A stretch of DNA of 64,000 bases from Escherichia phage vB_EcoM_LNA4 (MZ311864.1), one strand, 5' to 3'; shown: positions 7,789 through 51,376, counted from the first letter of the stretch. Numbers and translations are program-made. Notes: a model not told the origin generated them from the sequence alone.

Positions 7789-7850
7789 AATACAGCACAA
7801 AGAGGTGCTGGTCAATAACTGTATGTACAGAAATAAAGAAGAGGAAACCG

Positions 7851-9263
7851 ATGGCTTATAATGATAAGGTGGTTGACGTTACGGTCACGCTTGGTACTCA
7901 ACCAATCGACACCAAAGGGTTTGAAACCCCGCTGTTCCTGGCTATCCACAACGTCTTCCCTGAACGTTTTCGCGCCTATACCGAACTCGATCAGCTAGTA
8001 GATGATGGATTCGCTCCAGGTTCCCCAGCTTATGTCTTCGCAACAAAAGCATTCGCTGGTACATTCCGTCCTCAGTACCTGATGGTTGGTCGTCAAGGCT
8101 TCACTAATACCATCGTGGACTTCACTGGACAGGTAAATACCGACCCTGAAGCGCCTGTAGCCCTGAACGTAGTTTCCGGTGCTTATCAGACCAGCGTTAT
8201 CGTGGCGGTAACTGGTGCATCCACCCCAACCAGTATTGCTACCGCTCTGGCAGCATCTCTGAATGGTGATGCAACACTGACCACTGTTTTAACTGCAACC
8301 GCCAGCGCAGGTGTGGTAACAATCGCTCCTAAGAATGGTGGTGCATTCAGCGTCGGTCGCGATAGCGGAAACATGACTATCAGCAACACCTCTGGTGAAA
8401 CTGTGTCCTCTGTTCTTCCTCAGATCCTGACTGCAACTGAGAACTGGTACTTCCTGAGCACCGAGTCTCACACCAACGCATCCATCCTGGCTGCTGCTGC
8501 ATTTGCTTCTGCTAACTACAAGCTGCATGTGTATGCAACCGCCGATGAACTGGTTAAAACTGCTGGTAGCAACTCCATTGCTAACCAACTGAAAGCCCTC
8601 CAGTACGATACTTCTATCGGTATGTATGATCCGCTTGCGGATAGCGCATTCTCTGAAGGTGGTATCATCGGTGCAATGGCTTCCAACGATCCTTCTTACG
8701 GTGACTCTATTCACCTGAAGACAATGGAAGGTGTGATTGCTCCTACCCTGAGCGCTACCGACCGTATGACCATTTGGGGACAAAACTTGAACTTCTACCG
8801 TATGATTAACGGTGTTGGTTCCTTCTACGAAGGTAAGTGTGCTTCTGGCAACTACGTAGACGTTGTTCGTTTCGGTCACTGGCTGAAGTTCCGCACAGAA
8901 GAGAGCGTGTTTGGTTACATGTCTCGTCGTTCTAACATGGGTCTCTCCATGAAGATGAGTGATGACGATCTGCCAAACCTGAAGTCCGTGATGATGAACA
9001 ACCCAATCAACGTTGGCATCACCAACGGCTCTATCCTGACGGGATATGATGACGTAAACAAAGTGTTCTACGATCCGGTGATCACAATCCCGCTTCGTGC
9101 AAACATCCCGACTAACGATCTGGCTGCTCGTACTCTGAACAATGTGAAAGTGGAACTTGTGTACAACACACCACTGCACTTCGTTAAGATCCGCATGACC
9201 GTTCTGTTAGATAAAACAGGGTCTAGTTCCGGAAACGGTCAGACTGTAACAGCAGGAGTGTAA
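7851..9263 (+). CDS. tail sheath protein
   Basis: 470 aa ORF first in the order sheath-tube-chaperone-tape measure typical of myoviruses. Confidence 0.6.
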   Translation: MAYNDKVVDVTVTLGTQPIDTKGFETPLFLAIHNVFPERFRAYTELDQLVDDGFAPGSPAYVFATKAFAGTFRPQYLMVGRQGFTNTIVDFTGQVNTDPEAPVALNVVSGAYQTSVIVAVTGASTPTSIATALAASLNGDATLTTVLTATASAGVVTIAPKNGGAFSVGRDSGNMTISNTSGETVSSVLPQILTATENWYFLSTESHTNASILAAAAFASANYKLHVYATADELVKTAGSNSIANQLKALQYDTSIGMYDPLADSAFSEGGIIGAMASNDPSYGDSIHLKTMEGVIAPTLSATDRMTIWGQNLNFYRMINGVGSFYEGKCASGNYVDVVRFGHWLKFRTEESVFGYMSRRSNMGLSMKMSDDDLPNLKSVMMNNPINVGITNGSILTGYDDVNKVFYDPVITIPLRANIPTNDLAARTLNNVKVELVYNTPLHFVKIRMTVLLDKTGSSSGNGQTVTAGV

Positions 9264-9266
9264 TAA

Positions 9267-9740
9267 ATGAATACAGCTATCCTAACACCGTATGCTTACG
9301 ACCCTAAAAAAGTCAAGCTATACCTGATGACTCAGCGTGTTACTGGATTTGCCGCAGATACCAAGATCGTCGTTGCTCGTAACGAAGATAACATCATCCC
9401 CCACATGGGGGTTGATGGTGAGCTATCCGCTGCACTGTCCCGTAACCAATCTGGTGTTATGACAGTTTCCCTCCAGAACACCGCTTCTTGGAACGGAAAC
9501 TTCGCAAACTGGCAGAAACAAGCCTCCATCACCGGGCTGATCTTCTTCCCTGTCCTTCTTGAAGGTTCTCAGGGTATGGGTCTCAGCACTATCGGTTGGA
9601 TTCAGAAACAACCAGACCTGACCTACGGTACAGAAGTGGGCCAGATGGACTGGGAAATCGGTATCCTCGACGCTTGGTTAAGCCCAGATACTCTGTCTTC
9701 CGCAGGCTTCGGTCTTGCTGGTCTTGCAGGTATCGTATAA
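9267..9740 (+). CDS. tail tube protein
   Basis: 157 aa ORF immediately after sheath gene, GGAG RBS. Confidence 0.55.
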   Translation: MNTAILTPYAYDPKKVKLYLMTQRVTGFAADTKIVVARNEDNIIPHMGVDGELSAALSRNQSGVMTVSLQNTASWNGNFANWQKQASITGLIFFPVLLEGSQGMGLSTIGWIQKQPDLTYGTEVGQMDWEIGILDAWLSPDTLSSAGFGLAGLAGIV

Positions 9741-9815
9741 GTGTTTCGTGTGCCACATGGACGTGGCCTTTCACACACGTAAGGATCTCTCAATCTCAAA
9801 GACGCAGGAGCGTAC

Positions 9816-10289
9816 ATGAATATCAGACCAACAACTGAAATCGACCTCGCAGGTCACAACTTTGTTATCACGCACTGGTCTCCTTCCAAGGTTATGAAAA
9901 ACCTTCCGAAGATCGGTCGTTATGTAGCAGTCCCTATGGCAACCATCTCTGGTTCCATGATGACTGGAGGCCAGAACCTATCTGACGCCCTCCCAACTGC
10001 TATTCTATACCTCTTTGAACAGATGGAGCAAGATGATATCGAAAAACTTTTCGCATTGATTCTTGAGGATGTATCCGTTGATGGTATGGCGGGTAAAGTA
10101 GATATTGACGCTCTGTTCCAAGATAAAATGTTAGACCTCATTAAGCTTGTTGCTAAAGTTCTGGAGATTAACTACGGCTGTTTTTTCACGAAAGACGGTT
10201 TCGCAGACCTTCAGGGACTTCTGGGACGCCTGGGACAGACCCATCAAGTGAATACGGTGGATCAGGCGACGGAAGTGGCAGCGGAGTAA
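9816..10289 (+). CDS. tail assembly chaperone (G-like, zero-frame product)
   Basis: 157 aa ORF just upstream of tape measure gene; contains slippery heptamer near 3' end. Confidence 0.6.
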   Translation: MNIRPTTEIDLAGHNFVITHWSPSKVMKNLPKIGRYVAVPMATISGSMMTGGQNLSDALPTAILYLFEQMEQDDIEKLFALILEDVSVDGMAGKVDIDALFQDKMLDLIKLVAKVLEINYGCFFTKDGFADLQGLLGRLGQTHQVNTVDQATEVAAE

Positions 10290-10567
10290 CACCGTCCAAA
10301 ATTTCGAAAGTCGTCCTGAGAGCTATGGAGTATGCAAAGAAAAATAGCTCACTGACTTGGTTCGATTACTTGTGGTGTCGTGCTCTGAAAAATTTCAAAG
10401 GGGAATCTTATATGTCCCTTGAACATGCGGATATGGCCTATCTGCTCAGGCTGAATGAATTTCTTGATGTGGAAGAGTTTGTCAACGATGTCCACGAGAG
10501 AGAGGAAGATAGTAAAGCAAAAGCTGCTCAAGCCGCTAACAAGCCGCGCCGTGGTAGAAGAGGTTAA
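10172..10567 (+). CDS. -1 frame extension of tail assembly chaperone (GT-like fusion product, about 250 aa)
   Basis: Frame is open 150 nt upstream of its first ATG (10325), overlapping the chaperone 3' end; ATG at 10325 lacks a good RBS. Confidence 0.5.
   Translation, partial: LRLFFHERRFRRPSGTSGTPGTDPSSEYGGSGDGSGSGVTPSKISKVVLRAMEYAKKNSSLTWFDYLWCRALKNFKGESYMSLEHADMAYLLRLNEFLDVEEFVNDVHEREEDSKAKAAQAANKPRRGRRG
10181..10187 (+). other. candidate -1 programmed ribosomal frameshift slippery site T_TTT_TTC
   Basis: X_XXY_YYZ heptamer in frame 0 of chaperone gene; -1 frame open from 10172 to 10567. Confidence 0.5.
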
Positions 10568-10570
10568 TCT

Positions 10571-10609
10571 CAAGCCGGGTTCCTTTTCGGGAACCTGGCT
10601 TTTTTATTG
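10571..10609 (+). terminator. rho-independent terminator
   Basis: aagccgggttcc-ttttc-gggaacctggctt hairpin followed by tttttatt. Confidence 0.7.
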
Positions 10610-10620
10610 AGAGGAAATCA

Positions 10621-13014
10621 ATGGCGAACATTATTGTTACCCAGACAGTCAACAAGGTTGTTTGGGATGTTGATAAGACATCCTACGGACGCGCTCTGAA
10701 AGCCGTCAAGTCTTTGAAGACAGAATGGGAAAAAGCTGGTAAGGCGTTCTCTGCCAGCAAGTCCGACCCCGCAGCAGCACTAAAGCGTTCAGCAATGCAA
10801 GCTCGCCTTGTCAACAAAAGACTGCAACAGACTGAACGTGCTGAACAAGCAAAGACCACAGCCCACAATATCGCGATGGCGAAGAAAGAGGCTCGTGCTC
10901 GTGAAGCAATTGATAAGATCCAAAGAGCACGTAGGAAACAAGCTGTAGCCCAGCTTACAGCAAAACGCTCACCAGAGTCTCAGGCTGATTATAATGGACT
11001 AAAAGCTCGTCTGCGTCAAATGGAAAAAACAGGGGGTGGTTACGGTACTAATCCTGCAATTTCCGCTGCACGTCAAGCTGCACTGCAAGAAGAACTGGCT
11101 CGCCGTTCTAAATCAGGAAACGCTTCAGGTATGGTTGGTAGTGGTACTGCCTCTGATCCGGCACTGATTGCTCGTCAAAACCGTGCAATGCAACAGCAGG
11201 TCCAGCGTCAACAGCAGAAAGCATCCAGAGAGCAACTTCGTGCTCGTGAACAAGCTCGTAAGAAACAAGAGGCAGAAGACCTTCGTTACTCTCGTTATCT
11301 TGCAGGTAAAGAATCTACCGTAGCCAACGCTGCTGTACGTCTTCGTGCAAAATATGGTGATAACTACGCAACGAAACTCAAGGGTTTCGACTCCTTGAAA
11401 GAAAGATTCCTTGACAGCAACACAATGAAGTCTTCTAACTTCCGTGCTGAACTTGCTGCTATGGAGACCGGGCTTCGTAAAGCAAATCAGAACACCCTCT
11501 CCCTGACAGATGGGCTGAAGAACCTGCGTAGCACACTAGTCAGTGTCACTGCTGCTTACGGAGCATTCAACGCTGCTGCAAGTGTTGTAAGAACAGGTCA
11601 GTTCTTCCAGGGTATGGAGGCCACTATGTTGATGGTTTCTGATAACTCAGAGGAGGCTGGTAAGCGCATGAAGTTTGTCCGTGACCAGTCCTACCGTTTA
11701 GGTCTTGATCTTAAGGTAGCGGCACAGGGTTACACGCAGATGGCTATCGCTGCTGACGGTGTTCTGAGTAAATCACAGAACGATGAGTTGTTCAAGTCTT
11801 TCTCTGAGTATGCAACAGCCCTACAGGTTGACCCGGTTAAATACCAACGTGGTATTACCGCGATTCAACAGATGATGGGTAAGGGTCAGATCATGGCTGA
11901 AGAACTTAAGCAACAACTTGCGGAAGGTATTCCGGGTTCTTTACAGGTGTTCATTAAGGCTTCTCAAGAAGCATTCAATGACTCCACCATCGACGTAACC
12001 AAGATGCTCGACATGATGCAGAAGGGTGAGTTGAAGGCTGCTAAAGTTCTACCGTTCGTTGCCAAGTATTACTCTCAAGCTGCAAATAAGGGTGGCGCTC
12101 TACAGACCGCTCTGAAAGGTAACCGTGTTGCAATGCAGCGCCTGACGCTGACATGGATGGACTTCCAGAACAAGGTGTTTGCAAGTGGTTTTGGTGACTC
12201 ATTAACTGAAGCTTTCAACGAACTCTCAAAAATTCTTGACTCCAACGGGCCTTTGGCTCAGAATCTGGGTCAATTCTTCAAGGGGTTCACTGATGGGTTC
12301 ATGTTTATGGTCTACACTGTCTACAACACCTTTGTCCTCATCCAGGGGATCATGGAGCGCTACATCCCGATCTTCCGTAAAAACGGTGAAGAACTTTCCT
12401 CTGCATGGAAATGGGTTGGATGGGGTCTTGGTGCTCTGTTCTTTGCTTCTGCACTTTTCCGTGTGTTCAACATTCTATCCAAAATTGCTGGCCTTTCCGG
12501 AGCACTCGGCTTCCTGAAGACCATCTTTGGTGGCCCTGATGATGAGGAAGGCGGTGGCGGCGATGGTAAGAACAAGAATCGTAAAGGCCCTCGTTTCGGT
12601 AAGTTTGGTAAGGCTGCTCGCTGGTTTGGTCTTTACGGACTAATTGCCGGGGAGAGTATGCTTGCTGGTGATTGGGTGTTCGACCAAGCCCAGGACTACA
12701 GCGACAAGACCTACGGAACTGAGACCACCGCAGGTGGTAACCTTAAGAAAAACTCTTGGATGGGTCAGACGTGGGACTTCATCACAGGACAGAGATCAAT
12801 GACTGACCAGCGCAGACTTGATTATCTGAACCAGAATGGTATGGTTCCTGGACCAGCAGGGGCAGCAACACCTCCGATGGTCATTCCGACAGAACCTGTT
12901 AACGGTGAGATTACGATCAAAATCGACGCAGGCGAAATGAAGAACATGATTGACCAGCAGATTGAAGCTGCGAACATGGGTAACATCAACCTAATCCTTG
13001 GTGTTCCTCAATAA
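10621..13014 (+). CDS. tail tape measure protein
   Basis: 797 aa; Ala/Gln/Arg-rich coiled-coil N-terminus, hydrophobic Gly-rich segment, position after chaperone pair. Confidence 0.8.
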   Translation: MANIIVTQTVNKVVWDVDKTSYGRALKAVKSLKTEWEKAGKAFSASKSDPAAALKRSAMQARLVNKRLQQTERAEQAKTTAHNIAMAKKEARAREAIDKIQRARRKQAVAQLTAKRSPESQADYNGLKARLRQMEKTGGGYGTNPAISAARQAALQEELARRSKSGNASGMVGSGTASDPALIARQNRAMQQQVQRQQQKASREQLRAREQARKKQEAEDLRYSRYLAGKESTVANAAVRLRAKYGDNYATKLKGFDSLKERFLDSNTMKSSNFRAELAAMETGLRKANQNTLSLTDGLKNLRSTLVSVTAAYGAFNAAASVVRTGQFFQGMEATMLMVSDNSEEAGKRMKFVRDQSYRLGLDLKVAAQGYTQMAIAADGVLSKSQNDELFKSFSEYATALQVDPVKYQRGITAIQQMMGKGQIMAEELKQQLAEGIPGSLQVFIKASQEAFNDSTIDVTKMLDMMQKGELKAAKVLPFVAKYYSQAANKGGALQTALKGNRVAMQRLTLTWMDFQNKVFASGFGDSLTEAFNELSKILDSNGPLAQNLGQFFKGFTDGFMFMVYTVYNTFVLIQGIMERYIPIFRKNGEELSSAWKWVGWGLGALFFASALFRVFNILSKIAGLSGALGFLKTIFGGPDDEEGGGGDGKNKNRKGPRFGKFGKAARWFGLYGLIAGESMLAGDWVFDQAQDYSDKTYGTETTAGGNLKKNSWMGQTWDFITGQRSMTDQRRLDYLNQNGMVPGPAGAATPPMVIPTEPVNGEITIKIDAGEMKNMIDQQIEAANMGNINLILGVPQ

Positions 13015-22368: not shown

Positions 22369-23862
22369 GTGGCTGCTCAATATGGATTAAACGACTACGG
22401 CTTTGCGATCCCATCCCTTGATGATCTAATCGCAGATACAAAGCAGTCACTAATCCGAACTTTCGGTGAGAACTTCAACACACAGTCAAACACTATTGTT
22501 GATAAGCTTACCACAATTTTGAATGAAAGGGAGTACCAGTTAATCCTTCTGGCTGCGGCTGTGTATTCTGCACAGACCCTTGCAGGTGCTGAAGGTATTT
22601 ACCTGGATGAACTGCTTGGTCGTCGTGGTATTTATCGTCGTGGGAAAACAAGAGGCTCCGGTACGGTACAGATGGTTGTAAACAACACTGTGCCATACAA
22701 CATGATCTACAGTGCTGCAACATATAGCATCGACAGTGGCAACTTCGTACTTAACCAAGACACCCCGGTAGCTGGTAATATCCTTGCACAGCAAATCCTG
22801 AACCCGGACTGGGTGCTTGGTAACTACACCTTCCAGATGATGAACCAGAATGATGGTACAACTAAGACAATGGCCCTGACCCTGAGCAACAAAACGCCTA
22901 ACAGCGCTCAGATGAATGCCTTTATGTCTTCCATCAAAGACTTTATCATCCAGAACACCACGCAGTTAAACGAAGACAGAATCTTCATTGATTCTGCCAA
23001 CGGTGCTCTGTATATTGGTTATGATGCCAACAAAAAAATGATCGGTCTTAACAGCCGTGTTGATTTTCGTTCCTCCCCAGTTATCGGGCAGAGAACGATC
23101 ACGATGGATGTTATTGCCGCTGAAGCTGGTGAGATCTCTCGTGAAGCAAACACCGTAACAAACATCAGCCCAACCCCAAGTGGCTTTATCAGTATGACGA
23201 ACATGGCTGCATTTAACGATGGGTCAGACGTTGAAACCGATACAGACTACAAGGTCCGTGCTGCTAACAGTACAGCCGCTGGCGCTGCTGCTACCCGTCC
23301 TGCTGTCATCTCTGCTGTTCTTAACGTAGAGGGTGTCAGCAAGGTCCGTGTGTTCTCTAACAACACCGGATCAACGGATCAGTATGGTGTGCCTGCATAT
23401 AAGTTCGAAACTGTTGTGTATGGTGGTTCAACTGAGGATATCAGTCAAGCGCTTTATAACACAATTGCATTATCCAACGCAACCTATGGTAATGTCTTCT
23501 ATGATATCACCACAGAGGATGATCAGACAGAACGAATTTTCCACAGTAAGGCTCAGGCCCGTGAACTCGCACTTCGCGTTCGTTACAAAGGGAAACTTCT
23601 CTCAGTCACAGAGCAAAACACAATCAAAGATGCTTTGAAGGCAGTTGTTGATCCTTTAAACATCGCAGACACCCTGTACAACATTCAGTTGGTATCTGCG
23701 GTAGGTTCTTCAATCTCTCCTGGTCGATTCACTCAACTGTTTGTTGATGTAAAGAATGTTGGTCAACCAGACAGTTCCTACACAAACAGCGATGTGGTGG
23801 CCGGGATGACACAAGTCTTCGCACTGGATACAGACGACATCACCTTCCAGCAAATCATCTAA
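22369..23862 (+). CDS. baseplate J-like protein (gp6/gpJ family)
   Basis: GTG start with AGGAGG RBS; segment AEGIYLDELLGRRGIYRRGKTRGSGTVQMVV matches baseplate J-type pattern. Confidence 0.55.
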   Translation: MAAQYGLNDYGFAIPSLDDLIADTKQSLIRTFGENFNTQSNTIVDKLTTILNEREYQLILLAAAVYSAQTLAGAEGIYLDELLGRRGIYRRGKTRGSGTVQMVVNNTVPYNMIYSAATYSIDSGNFVLNQDTPVAGNILAQQILNPDWVLGNYTFQMMNQNDGTTKTMALTLSNKTPNSAQMNAFMSSIKDFIIQNTTQLNEDRIFIDSANGALYIGYDANKKMIGLNSRVDFRSSPVIGQRTITMDVIAAEAGEISREANTVTNISPTPSGFISMTNMAAFNDGSDVETDTDYKVRAANSTAAGAAATRPAVISAVLNVEGVSKVRVFSNNTGSTDQYGVPAYKFETVVYGGSTEDISQALYNTIALSNATYGNVFYDITTEDDQTERIFHSKAQARELALRVRYKGKLLSVTEQNTIKDALKAVVDPLNIADTLYNIQLVSAVGSSISPGRFTQLFVDVKNVGQPDSSYTNSDVVAGMTQVFALDTDDITFQQII

Positions 23863-48267: not shown

Positions 48268-48777
48268 TTATTCTCCTTCTTTGTTTACAAGACCATCATC
48301 AAATGGAATACCGAAGTATTCACTATTCAGGTCATCGCAGAATTCTACCCATTTCTTCTGGGATTTAATACCGCTACCATCGTTGCCCCATTTCTTGTCA
48401 CGCTGGATAGCGACTTGCTGGACAATGCGGTTAGTCAAGGCGAACGCCATACGATTGCTCATACGACGAAGTGGGTTGCCACGATAATCACCAGCATTGT
48501 GCATATGCACCGCATCTTCCAAGGAAAAGTGCATCGGAAGAGAGGTGATATCGTTGTTGAATGCACGGACGTAGCCGAAACGACCATCGGTGATGTTTGG
48601 GTACTCAGGCAAGCGACGAGGGACGTAACCAAAGGCAGACATCATCTCGTCAAGAGAGGCCATTTGGATGTGAACGGTGTCCATTGCCTTTTCTGCACGG
48701 AGACCGGACATTGAGTTCCAGTCTTCAATTTCCTTACGGAATTTTTTAGCCAACTCTAAACGAGAAAATGATGCCAT
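48268..48777 (-). CDS. hypothetical protein
   Basis: 169 aa ORF. Confidence 0.5.
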   Translation of the reverse strand: MASFSRLELAKKFRKEIEDWNSMSGLRAEKAMDTVHIQMASLDEMMSAFGYVPRRLPEYPNITDGRFGYVRAFNNDITSLPMHFSLEDAVHMHNAGDYRGNPLRRMSNRMAFALTNRIVQQVAIQRDKKWGNDGSGIKSQKKWVEFCDDLNSEYFGIPFDDGLVNKEGE

Positions 48778-48788
48778 GATTTTATCTC

Positions 48789-50096
48789 CTATTTGCCAGG
48801 GAAAGTTCTTTCGTAGAAGTCTACAATACGTTGGTCAACAATGATATCTTTTTCTTTGACCTTACGCAAGAGTCTTAAACCGTTTGCAGTCGTAGCACGG
48901 CTAAAGGCGACGTATGCCATACCGGGTGCGAATGCTCCATACCCAAAGTCTACATTAAGGAGCGGCAATGTCAAGCCCTGTGCCTTATGAATTGTCACCG
49001 CCCATCCTAAACGGATAGGGAGTGCTCGATATTCACCAATGGTGATCTTCTCAAGCTCTTCGGTGATAGTCCCATCAGTATTACGGACCTTGATCGGGTT
49101 GTACTCAACGTTCTCCCACACATGCGGTTCAACATCAACAACTTTACCACACTCAAGGCGCACCTTAACACTCTCTTTTCCAAGCTCAATCACCTCACCG
49201 CGCGAGCCGTTAACATACTCTGGCTCTTCAAACCCCTTCGGGTCGTTCACGGTGATCATTACCTTGGCACCCTCCTTCAGATATAACTCCTCCGGGACAG
49301 GTTTTTGGGTGAAATCGCCAGTCTTTTTCGCAGAATAAAGCACAGGAAGTCCCGGAATTTCTTCAAAGCGCTTCTTGTTTACCTTATCCGCAGCAGCGTT
49401 GGTGGATGTGATCGTAATCGCATCTGGGATTGCCTGACCACCACGGTAACAGACACCGTTAAGTTCCCTCACAATATCAGGAATACGCTGTCCACGACGA
49501 AGACAGTTAAGCAACCCTGAGAAACGCGTGCTGTTCTGGCGATAAACCTTCTCAAGAATAACCGGGTAAGGGTTAAGCTCTTGCCACGTATCGGAGAAGC
49601 AACACAATTCCGTTGGGTGGAACTGGAAGTACATTTCCTTTTCCGCCTCTGTGAGGACAGGTGGGTTCTGGAAGAAGTCCCCAAACATGCAAATCTGCAA
49701 ACCACCGAAAGGTTTGTTTGGTTCTCTACGTGCAATACGGCACTTCATATCCATTTCCCAAAGCTTATCAGCACGAAACATACTGATCTCATCAATGATT
49801 ATGATCTTTAATGCTTTGCTTTTCAAAAGTTTTTTTACTTTAGGCTTTAATTCTTCCGCTTCTTTCTTTGTCGCAACACCCATTGATAATCTAAACGCAC
49901 GGTGAGCCGTCATACCATCAACGTTAATGGCAGCAGCCCCCGTAGGGGCTACAGTTAGAACGGAACCTGCGTAAAGAGATTGGATGGTCTTAATGGTGTA
50001 GCTTTTGCCACTACCTCCGGGACCCGTAACGAATACGTTGTCACCGGACATGATAGCACCAAGGGCTGCTTCAACGCCCACGCCAAAATCAGACAT
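48789..50096 (-). CDS. SF1 DNA helicase, Dda/RecD-like
   Basis: Walker A VTGPGGSGKS; Walker B IIIDEISM; GDFFQNPPV; motif VI TIHKAQGLT; ATG at 50096 with GGAGG RBS. Confidence 0.8.
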   Translation of the reverse strand: MSDFGVGVEAALGAIMSGDNVFVTGPGGSGKSYTIKTIQSLYAGSVLTVAPTGAAAINVDGMTAHRAFRLSMGVATKKEAEELKPKVKKLLKSKALKIIIIDEISMFRADKLWEMDMKCRIARREPNKPFGGLQICMFGDFFQNPPVLTEAEKEMYFQFHPTELCCFSDTWQELNPYPVILEKVYRQNSTRFSGLLNCLRRGQRIPDIVRELNGVCYRGGQAIPDAITITSTNAAADKVNKKRFEEIPGLPVLYSAKKTGDFTQKPVPEELYLKEGAKVMITVNDPKGFEEPEYVNGSRGEVIELGKESVKVRLECGKVVDVEPHVWENVEYNPIKVRNTDGTITEELEKITIGEYRALPIRLGWAVTIHKAQGLTLPLLNVDFGYGAFAPGMAYVAFSRATTANGLRLLRKVKEKDIIVDQRIVDFYERTFPGK

Positions 50097-51376
50097 CAAT
50101 CCTCCTTAGTTTCTTCTTCCAGGTAGATTTGTTCCAAGATTTCACCTGCTGCACCAATTACCAGAATATCTGGTGCGCCCACTGGCTTGTCCACACCCGT
50201 CAACACCTCATAACGACAGCAACGGCACTTCTGCTGGTTGTAGTCGTAAGGAACACTTACAACGTCAGCCGGGTTAACAGCTACCTCGATAAGGCTGTTA
50301 CCAACAAAGCCGCCTGCGTATTCCAGAGAGGCAATGTGCAGACCTTGGCTACAGGAGACACTTGGATTATCTTCAACCATGTTTCGTGGCATAGAAATAA
50401 TCTGGCCTTTGTAGTTTGGAACCTTCTTGGTGCGGGTATCGCGAGGACCATCAGCAGTGTTGGTGATCTTCTTGTACGCCTTAACGTCACCATTTTCAAG
50501 GATCTCAAGGTCGTTGTGCTGAATAAAATCATACAGCATCTTCACAGAGGCATAAGACGGGTTGTGCATCAGCTTCTGCATGAACTTCACATAACGCTCA
50601 TCGAAAGTATCATTGTTGATATCGTTGAGGATACGTTTTGCAAGAGTGGTCTCTTGCTTCTGCCCGTGCCAGTACAGAACACCATCCAATAGCTTCAGGT
50701 CTGGACCGAGATCAACGACCTTCTCTGCCTTCGCTTCCTTCCCTGCTTCGATCAGGGCGATAGCCCCATCAATGTCGCCCTCAATCAACAGCAGACCGAC
50801 ATCCGGGAAGATATCGTTGTCACGGTTAATCGTGTGCTGAGTACCATCAGGCATAGAGATGCAGACGTTACCGGGAGTCATGATGACCACAGGGTCTTTC
50901 TTCTCGGTGACCTCTTCGTCGAAATATGTTTTCGGTGCAGACTCTTCAACAACCACACTCACAGGGACCTTGTAAGGCTCCGGCAATAGTGTGACCGTTG
51001 CTTCGATATGCAGGTCGGTTACTTCGAAAGTGACTTCCCAGCGTTTTCCCTGCTTACCAAGATCCTTAACAACACCGTAGTTTACCCCCCGGTCACCCTG
51101 GGCGTGGTCAATAATCTTAGCATTCTTTTTGCCCTTTGCAAAGTCACGGGCCTCACCACGACTTCCGAAGAACATAGAAGACCGAGCAGGAACGGCTTCA
51201 GAGGTGAAGCTCATGTCAACTTCTGGGGGCTTAGAAGCCCCTTGACTATCTTTTGGTACAACCATCCAACGGCCTTCTGCCAGCACCGCTGGTGATACAC
51301 CACGGTCTACAACCTTCATACCGTTGAGGGATGCGTACTCACGCGCCTTACTGCGGGATTCAAAAAGATTACTCAT
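50096..51376 (-). CDS. rIIB: rIIB-like protein (tentative)
   Basis: 426 aa ORF translationally coupled (ATGA) downstream of the rIIA-like gene; assignment by synteny only. Confidence 0.4.
   Translation of the reverse strand: MSNLFESRSKAREYASLNGMKVVDRGVSPAVLAEGRWMVVPKDSQGASKPPEVDMSFTSEAVPARSSMFFGSRGEARDFAKGKKNAKIIDHAQGDRGVNYGVVKDLGKQGKRWEVTFEVTDLHIEATVTLLPEPYKVPVSVVVEESAPKTYFDEEVTEKKDPVVIMTPGNVCISMPDGTQHTINRDNDIFPDVGLLLIEGDIDGAIALIEAGKEAKAEKVVDLGPDLKLLDGVLYWHGQKQETTLAKRILNDINNDTFDERYVKFMQKLMHNPSYASVKMLYDFIQHNDLEILENGDVKAYKKITNTADGPRDTRTKKVPNYKGQIISMPRNMVEDNPSVSCSQGLHIASLEYAGGFVGNSLIEVAVNPADVVSVPYDYNQQKCRCCRYEVLTGVDKPVGAPDILVIGAAGEILEQIYLEEETKED

Follow-up and report, generated by a model that had tools for sequence, protein, structure and literature searches.

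A conserved slippery heptamer and a start-less -1 reading frame point to programmed frameshifting in the tail assembly chaperone gene of Escherichia phage vB_EcoM_LNA4

RESULTS

Genes and features of the locus

The DNA analyzed, here called the window, is a stretch of 64,000 nucleotides (nt) from Escherichia phage vB_EcoM_LNA4 (MZ311864.1); all positions are counted from its first nt. Between positions 7800 and 13100 the sequence is 92 to 93% identical to the sequences of Enterobacter phage EC152, Cronobacter phage GAP31, and Escherichia phage 4MG. These three belong to the genus Seunavirus in the subfamily Vequintavirinae and are lytic myoviruses of ∼148 kb. The gene order in the window is tail sheath, tail tube, tail assembly chaperone (TAC), an open reading frame (ORF) in the -1 frame that ends at 10567, and tape measure. 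The features used in this analysis are the following.

7851 to 9263, + strand: tail sheath gene, 470 aa; so annotated in GAP31 and PVP-SE1
9267 to 9740, + strand: tail tube gene, 157 aa; Pfam PF11681 KPP10_Orf10, 6.9e-07
9806 to 9810, + strand: Shine-Dalgarno sequence AGGAG of the chaperone gene, 5 nt before the ATG; read from the sequence
9816 to 10289, + strand: zero-frame ORF for the short chaperone, TAC-N, 157 aa, 17.25 kDa; Pfam and PHROG matches
10169 to 10171, + strand: TAA, the last -1-frame stop, 9 nt before the heptamer and the 5' limit of any productive shift
10181 to 10187, + strand: slippery heptamer T_TTT_TTC (P-site UUU, F123; A-site UUC, F124) in the X_XXY_YYZ register
10187 to 10300, + strand: -1-frame linker HERRFRRPSG...GVTPSK, rich in Gly, Ser, Thr, and Pro; overlaps the TAC-N tail up to 10289
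10199 to 10202, + strand: secondary candidate slip site U_UUC, inside a GGTTTCG block that is nucleotide-invariant in nearly all lineages
10287 to 10289, + strand: zero-frame stop TAA of TAC-N; read from the sequence
10301 to 10567, + strand: conserved C-terminal domain of the predicted long product, TAC-NC, with its stop (ISKVVLRA...KPRRGRRG); dN/dS and alignments
10572 to 10607, + strand: terminator-like hairpin (13-bp stem, 10572 to 10601) and T-run between the TAC-NC stop and the tape measure start
10621 to 13014, + strand: tape measure protein gene, 797 aa; Pfam PF20155 TMP_3, 3.5e-14

By homology, the first ORF is a tail assembly chaperone. TAC-N matches Pfam PF21822 Phage_TAC_15 at 3.3e-27 (96 bits; the cut-off is 22) and PHROG 3840, 'tail assembly chaperone,' at 1.2e-71, and its homologue is labeled as a TAC in the RefSeq records of GAP31 and PVP-SE1. 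The upstream tube gene appears in the records of relatives as tail tube or virion structural protein. The TAC gene and the -1 ORF therefore occupy the position of a G/GT-type chaperone, between the tube gene and the tape measure gene. No second copy of TAC-N or of the C-terminal domain was found in the window. The terminator-like hairpin is kept in relatives with different stem sequences, and the record of phage Murica annotates the corresponding hairpin as a terminator.

The heptamer and the open -1 frame

The sequence at 10180 to 10189 is gTTTTTTCac. The initial annotation had proposed that a T_TTT_TTC heptamer lies here in frame 0, and this reading is correct: the zero-frame codons TGT (10179), TTT (10182), and TTC (10185), which are C122, F123, and F124 of the 157-aa ORF, place the heptamer in the X_XXY_YYZ register. 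It is thus a canonical in-register heptamer inside the overlap of the two ORFs, as is expected of a G/GT-type slip site. It had also been described as near the end of the chaperone gene. It does fall in the 3' part of the gene, but 100 nt (33 codons) separate it from the TAC-N stop.

The -1 frame is open from 10172, directly after the TAA at 10169 to 10171, to the stop at 10565 to 10567, which bears out the limits first given for it. These 131 codons overlap the 3' end of TAC-N over positions 10172 to 10289. Upstream of the heptamer the -1 frame has 12 stops in 121 codons; after the heptamer it has none. A +1 frameshift was considered and rejected, as the +1 frame is closed, being open only from 10252 to 10347.

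An in-frame X_XXY_YYZ heptamer has a chance of about 1/256 per codon, or ∼0.15 in the 38-codon overlap of a single genome, and the ORFs of at least 100 codons in the window contain 60 such heptamers in register. Because of these numbers, the presence of the heptamer in one genome is not beyond chance; it is the comparative data given below that raise the finding far above chance. TTTTTTC is under-represented in the window, with 6 copies found versus 15.1 ± 4.2 expected, and the copy at 10181 to 10187 is the only one to occupy the proper register of a real gene and to open into a long start-less -1 ORF. Two other in-register heptamers of the window that have -1 extensions were set aside as ordinary. 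The one at 23587 to 23596 belongs to a spurious ORF nested within a 497-aa gene, and the -1 extension from the one at 48798 to 48804 enters a neighboring gene that has its own ATG. The sequence U_UU.U_UU.C falls into the most efficient class of heptamers in E. coli (H_HH.U_UU.Y), gives more than 0.1% shifting without stimulators, and is used by insertion sequence (IS) elements (PMC4066793).

The -1 frame encodes a conserved domain

The two parts of the -1 frame downstream of the heptamer evolve differently. In the linker, pN and pS are similar, although the frame never contains a stop; the linker is predicted, with low confidence, to be disordered. The C-terminal domain has dN/dS values of 0.09 to 0.21 where dS is unsaturated, and in every pair pN is much lower than pS. 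These dN/dS values indicate that the domain is expressed. Its alignments contain 24 invariant residues, and it matches PHROGs 10409, 8811, and 16039, all of 'unknown function.' Searches of Pfam and NCBIfam with the linker plus C-terminal domain (10187 to 10567) returned no family.

We looked for relatives in which the N- and C-terminal parts are fused in a single ORF ('Rosetta-stone' proteins) and found none among 38 and 24 homologue clusters. One 130-aa match, from contigs of ≤850 bp, was rejected as a fusion; it aligns from the heptamer region onward and is probably the -1-frame ORF called at a contig end.

Conservation among relatives

Three sets of relatives were compared. The GenBank set consisted of 9 genomes from five Vequintavirinae genera (Seunavirus, Mydovirus, Vequintavirus, Avunavirus, and Henunavirus), and the IMG/VR set consisted of 25 contigs with TAC identities down to 46%. 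A distant set, obtained with tblastn, held phAPEC8-like and phi92-like Stephanstirmvirinae plus four single phages (Serratia phage Kashira, Aeromonas phage 2L372X, Rheinheimera phage Barba19A, and Vibrio phage 249E41-1).

In ∼40 loci, down to ∼36% chaperone identity, the heptamer T_TTT_TTC occurs unchanged and in register; the exceptions are the two most distant relatives. It is present at all 9 GenBank loci, across the five genera, and at all 25 IMG/VR loci, and it is kept in the phAPEC8-like and phi92-like phages, Kashira, and 2L372X at 33 to 43% chaperone identity. The groups that carry it are the Vequintavirinae, the Stephanstirmvirinae, Plateaulakevirus, and presumed CR3/phiTE-like phages. 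The codon that precedes the heptamer can be TGT, CCT, or AGT; the residue thus varies (Cys, Pro, or Ser), but the codon's last base, the T that serves as X of the heptamer, is constant. At about the same place, Barba19A has G_GGA_AAG and 249E41-1 has A_AAT_TTT, both in register. Such alternative heptamers are to be expected if a ribosomal slip site is under selection. Both the slip site and the arrangement in two frames are thus conserved despite divergence, as is expected of a G/GT-type locus.

The -1 frame behaves in the same way in every lineage. Before the site it contains 6 to 17 stops in ∼120 codons (8.8% of codons), and after the site it contains 0 stops in 93 to 128 codons, in 18 of 18 lineages. 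In each of these lineages, 20 to 36 of the open codons fall within the overlap with the chaperone gene. If stops were as frequent as they are upstream, 40 open codons would have a probability of ∼0.025 per independent lineage.

Synonymous variation in the chaperone gene reaches its minimum at the site. The pairwise synonymous difference is 0.57 over codons 1 to 118 versus 0.108 at codons 122 to 130; no other 9-codon window of the gene has a lower value (median, 0.541). Five degenerate residues are fully conserved, and of these only F123 (TTT) and F124 (TTC) are also invariant at the codon level. Protein constraint in two overlapping frames explains part of the conservation of the F-F dipeptide and of GGTTTCG.

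Search for stimulatory elements

A downstream stimulatory structure was among the features that the initial annotation suggested looking for, and none was found. A single-sequence fold of 10181 to 10300 was no better than those of shuffled sequences (MFE z = -0.68), the RNAalifold consensus fold of 15 lineages had 0 pairs, and an Rfam scan of 9700 to 10700 gave no match. A conserved stimulatory RNA structure 5 to 9 nt downstream, of the kind that characterizes dnaX/IS3-type sites, was thus not detected. A CGAAA/TTTCG hairpin seen by eye was rejected; it begins 1 nt past the heptamer and is not shared by Vequintavirus. Upstream, where sites of that type can have a Shine-Dalgarno-like element at a distance of ∼10 to 14 nt, GGAG is present at 10163 to 10166, 14 nt before the heptamer, in this phage and in several genera, but it is not conserved; Mydovirus, CR3-like, and other lineages have GAAG, TAAA, or TGAA in its place.

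Alternative explanations

Polymerase slippage would produce the same TAC-NC. If RNA polymerase added one U on the T6 run (10181 to 10186), the slipped mRNA would read TGT TTT TTT CAC... and would encode 250 aa containing ...CFFHER..., a protein identical to the one predicted from a ribosomal shift. Mass spectrometry of the junction would prove that a fusion exists but could therefore not separate the two mechanisms. In keeping with transcriptional slippage, the site is a homopolymer run, no RNA stimulator of a ribosomal shift was found, and related families share a GTTTTT motif and not the full heptamer (PMC12846349). However, productive runs in bacteria are ∼9 A or T residues (PMC5009743), and a conserved run of that length is absent here: the run is exactly T6, and never longer, in ∼40 sequences. 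The distant relatives, moreover, carry the non-homopolymeric G_GGA_AAG and A_AAT_TTT in the X_XXY_YYZ register, and such in-register replacements are sensible only under ribosomal slippage. We consider transcriptional slippage quite unlikely. It is very unlikely that there is no recoding at all and that the C-terminal domain is a separate small gene, translated independently or by reinitiation from the ATG at 10325 (80 aa) or the ATT at 10301 (88 aa). The public records would seem to favor a separate gene, since GenBank and RefSeq give a separate hypothetical protein and gene callers report ORFs of 68 to 86 aa; the ATG at 10325 is present in both Seunavirus and Avunavirus, and some T4-like phages, as described in PMC10885494, make their chaperone forms without frameshifting. 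But the annotations disagree on the start (ATT, ATA, or ATG) or split or miss the ORF, and the ATG is not conserved: other genera encode Ile, Ser, Leu, or Val in place of the Met. The conserved stretch ISKVV.RA precedes this position. The 80-aa ORF that had been taken as the unit consequently does not stand, as the conserved domain begins at ∼10301, upstream of an ATG that other genera lack. In 7 of 19 lineages the first 60 -1-frame codons include neither ATG, GTG, nor TTG, and none of the candidate starts is preceded by a Shine-Dalgarno sequence. In vB_EcoM_LNA4 the sole purine-rich stretch is GAGAG, only 2 nt from the ATG at 10325, whereas the chaperone and tape measure starts both have good Shine-Dalgarno sequences (AGGAG and AGAGGA, respectively) with 5-nt spacers; the downstream ORF, as first reported, has no convincing ribosome-binding site. 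Like the second ORF of a G/GT-type locus, it lacks a conserved start codon as well. A separate gene would also leave unexplained both the invariant heptamer and the -1 frame that is open through the 20 to 36 overlap codons in all 18 lineages.

A different slip site would give a different junction. A -1 shift at the U_UUC tetramer of GGT_TTC (10199 to 10202), instead of or beside the heptamer, would yield the junction ...CFFTKDGF|RRPSG... and the predicted peptides VLEINYGCFFTK plus DGFR. Among the tetramers of E. coli, U_UUC ranks second in its tendency to shift (PMC4066793), GGTTTCG is nearly always nucleotide-invariant, and G128 and F129 have zero synonymous variation. Dual coding (G-F in frame 0 and R-F-R in frame -1) can, however, account for GGTTTCG, and a shift at the tetramer does not account for the codon-level invariance of codons 122 to 124. 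Tetramers were ∼10-fold weaker than the best heptamers and needed a pseudoknot (PMC4066793), but no RNA structure was found at the vB_EcoM_LNA4 site. In addition, Aeromonas phage 2L372X lacks GGTTTC but keeps T_TTT_TTC. We regard a shift at the tetramer as highly improbable, though conceivable at a minor second site.

Proposed mechanism and products

A programmed -1 ribosomal frameshift of the lambda G/GT (P2 E/E+E') type is the probable, and on the sequence evidence well-favored, interpretation of the locus. The conserved G/GT-type chaperone frameshift that the initial annotation placed before the tape measure gene agrees with what was found for position, protein family, conserved heptamer, and start-less -1 ORF. 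The anatomy of the site and its conservation are observed directly; we infer that the shift occurs, how efficient it is, and what the two domains do.

Translation would start at the ATG at 9816, and most ribosomes would stop at the TAA at 10287 to 10289, giving the 157-aa TAC-N. A minority would shift when the P site holds UUU (F123) and the A site holds UUC (F124); the two tRNA-Phe molecules would then re-pair one base back, on UUU_UUU (10181 to 10186), and decoding would resume in the -1 frame at C10187 (CAC, His) and continue to the TAA at 10565 to 10567. The predicted product, TAC-NC, has 250 aa and a mass of 27.9 kDa. It would consist of residues 1 to 124 as the N-terminal domain, a linker of ∼38 aa, and a helical C-terminal domain of ∼88 aa with the basic tail KPRRGRRG. 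A shift at the heptamer predicts the junction peptide VLEINYGCFFHER, and the unshifted product alone predicts the peptides VLEINYGCFFTK and DGFADLQGLLGR. By analogy with lambda, the N-terminal domain would coat the tape measure protein, the C-terminal domain would recruit the tube protein, and neither TAC-N nor TAC-NC would end up in the virion. As a G/GT-type pair, the two products would be made at a fixed ratio, and tail assembly would require both. Since the shift needs no RNA stimulator and none is evident, its frequency is probably low, in the range of a few percent.

The AlphaFold model of TAC-N is of moderate confidence (pLDDT 68.8). In it, the last core helix (residues 105 to 124) ends at the shift site, and residues 139 to 157 are disordered, which would agree with a shared N-terminal domain that carries either of two alternative tails. 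A Foldseek search of the PDB with this model gave nothing significant (top match, 5ir0; E = 0.54), and a sequence-profile search of the PDB with TAC-N found no relative. The structure model of the linker plus C-terminal domain was unusable (pLDDT 51).

How the ratio of the two products might be fixed is a matter for speculation. The peptide before the shift point, N-Y-G-(C/P/S)-F-F, is invariant, and the U_UUC tetramer in GGUUUCG lies 12 nt past the heptamer. It is conceivable, though unlikely, that the ratio is set without RNA structure, either by this nascent peptide in the exit tunnel or by the heptamer and U_UUC acting in tandem. If true, such control would be an unusual structure-independent way to fix the TAC-N:TAC-NC ratio, and one that is kept across several myovirus (sub)families.

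DISCUSSION

Annotation and significance

None of the 21 annotated public records that we examined has a joined coding sequence (CDS) or marks recoding at this locus. These records span the Vequintavirinae, the Stephanstirmvirinae, Barbavirus, Plateaulakevirus, and one Vibrio phage; among the other matches listed, no feature name points to recoding. The C-terminal domain is started at ATT, ATA, or ATG, truncated, split in two, or omitted; it is spread over three PHROG families, and the records label it as a separate hypothetical protein. The main value of the finding is for annotation. Recognizing one TAC-NC protein of 250 aa would correct several hundred genome records, including those of therapeutic and biocontrol phages (PVP-SE1, rV5, and phi92 relatives), and would give the 'orphan' ORF a function.

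The frameshift as such is ordinary and expected in long-tailed phages, and it will not surprise a specialist. It would add another large myovirus lineage to the near-universal G/GT rule, unlike the T4-like phages. An invariant heptamer over deep divergence, its replacement in the outliers, and the lack of an RNA stimulator make a clean natural series, and the locus could serve as a simple model of structure-independent, low-level frameshifting.

Comparison with known systems

The -1 frameshift of lambda gpG/gpGT (Levin et al. 1993; Xu, Hendrix and Duda 2004, 2013, and 2014) is summarized in PMC5009743. The gpG:gpGT ratio is ∼30:1; the G part binds the tape measure protein and the T part binds the tube protein (PMC5009743). 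Lambda and vB_EcoM_LNA4 both have two overlapping ORFs immediately 5' of the tape measure gene, the second of them in the -1 frame and without its own start, and neither has a known strong RNA stimulator. Both would make a short major and a long minor product, which in vB_EcoM_LNA4 is a prediction. The differences are several. The heptamer is T_TTT_TTC here and G_GGA_AAG in lambda, and TAC-N (Phage_TAC_15) has no detectable sequence similarity to gpG or gpT. The present phage is of the Seunavirus type, a lytic myovirus with a large genome (∼148 kb) in which the sheath and tube genes precede the chaperone unit, and a terminator-like hairpin separates this unit from the tape measure gene. Because the shift would take place 33 codons before the TAC-N stop, the C termini of the two isoforms would be sizeable and different, unlike those of lambda.

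Another parallel is phage P2. Its gpE/gpE+E', reportedly described by Christie et al. in 2002, is a myovirus tail chaperone frameshift at T_TTT_TTG with products of 91 and 142 aa. The P2 system shares with vB_EcoM_LNA4 a contractile tail, the order sheath, tube, chaperone, and tape measure, and a poly-U -1 site that uses tRNA-Phe. The proteins, however, are unrelated in sequence, the seventh base of the heptamer is C here and G in P2, and the chaperone is longer here (157/250 aa versus 91/142 aa in P2).

In 2025, a -1 frameshift with a GTTTTT motif was proposed for the TAC loci of the Vandenendeviridae (Pakpunavirus) and Andersonviridae, and the same report links both families to the Vequintavirinae (PMC12846349); the virion modules are related. 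The loci of these families resemble the one described here in having a conserved T-run near the 3' end of TAC-N, a -1 frame that is uninterrupted in all genomes, and a downstream ORF that is routinely annotated as a hypothetical protein. They differ in that here the full X_XXY_YYZ heptamer is invariant and relatives with alternative heptamers were found. PMC12846349 analyzed other families and does not report the Vequintavirinae TAC locus, and the word 'frameshift' does not occur in the rV5 genome paper (PMC3606486). Among the papers that we searched, none describes a chaperone frameshift for the Vequintavirinae or their Stephanstirmvirinae relatives, including rV5, PVP-SE1, phi92, and phAPEC8, and none gives protein, reporter, or genetic data on the two products.

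The T4-like phages achieve a similar outcome by other means. According to Vladimirov, Gautam and Davidson 2022, as described in PMC10885494, their TACs are encoded by separate short and fused long genes, with no frameshift. Like vB_EcoM_LNA4, they are large lytic myoviruses with short and long chaperone isoforms (predicted, in the present case), but vB_EcoM_LNA4 has a single TAC copy in the window and an overlapping -1 ORF. Overall, the closest parallels are P2 E/E+E' and the 2025 GTTTTT proposal, and the locus appears, with good support in silico, to be an instance of the conserved tail-chaperone frameshift of Xu, Hendrix and Duda 2004.

Sequence elements downstream of the heptamer

The features downstream of the slippery heptamer (T_TTT_TTC, 10181-10187) were as follows.

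10197-10203: GGTTTCG, a nucleotide-invariant block 9 nt 3′ of the heptamer
10572-10607: strong terminator-like hairpin with a 13-bp stem and a T-run

Frame 0 reads GGTTTCG as G-F and frame −1 reads it as R-F-R, with the Phe in both frames drawn from one common T-run. Its conservation is probably explained by this dual coding. The block also contains a U_UUC tetramer, and a second slip site there is a less likely alternative.

The hairpin lies immediately 3′ of the −1 ORF stop and 14 nt 5′ of the start of the tape-measure gene. In 13 relatives this position likewise carries a hairpin; the stem sequences differ, and the changes among them look compensatory. In the phage Murica record this hairpin is annotated as a terminator. 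phAPEC8-like and phi92-like phages have no hairpin at this position. The hairpin may attenuate expression of the tape-measure gene relative to the chaperone.

Slippery motifs across the window

Counting both strands, the whole 64-kb window has 6 copies of TTTTTTC versus 15.1 ± 4.2 expected from dinucleotide shuffles, and all of the 100 shuffles had at least 6 occurrences. This rarity is consistent with a general avoidance of this slippery or indel-prone motif. Another heptamer was considered as a candidate recoding site.

48798-48804, minus strand: T_TTC_CCT, three codons before the end of the ORF at 48789-50099

The −1 frame from this heptamer runs into the next gene (48268-48777), which has its own ATG. 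Rather than recoding, the site most likely marks a normal junction between two genes.

Annotation of the locus in related phages

Homologues of the C-domain, the conserved C-terminal part of the predicted frameshift product (10301-10567), fall into PHROGs 10409 (82 aa), 8811 (60 aa), and 16039 (72 aa), all labeled "unknown function"; these appear to be one domain whose gene calls were truncated differently. In GenBank the start codon assigned to it varies: ATT in GAP31 and PVP-SE1, ATA in Murica, or else ATG. The MiataMamis record splits the ORF, and those of VLCpiM5a, VIK251, Hena1, and nieznany leave it out. In Rheinheimera phage Barba19A (1128-1766 of its locus sequence), the C-domain ORF and the tape-measure gene are separated by an inserted HNH endonuclease gene that is encoded on the other strand.

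About 20 GenBank MG0656xx records titled "Campylobacter phage" (e.g., MG065653, MG065646, and MG065672) match the window's chaperone locus (∼64% nucleotide and 54.9% chaperone protein identity). Their identity and coverage equal those of E. coli rV5-like Vequintavirus records, each group having been compared with the window's locus alone. The "Campylobacter" host labels look doubtful.

Structural comparison of the chaperone

A Foldseek search of the PDB with the predicted structure of the zero-frame chaperone (9816-10286) gave no significant match. The best, 5ir0 (probability 0.82, E = 0.54, TM 0.41/0.57), is ORF19 of a Vibrio cholerae PICI-like element, and this nonsignificant match to a model might hint at a chaperone-like protein in that satellite.
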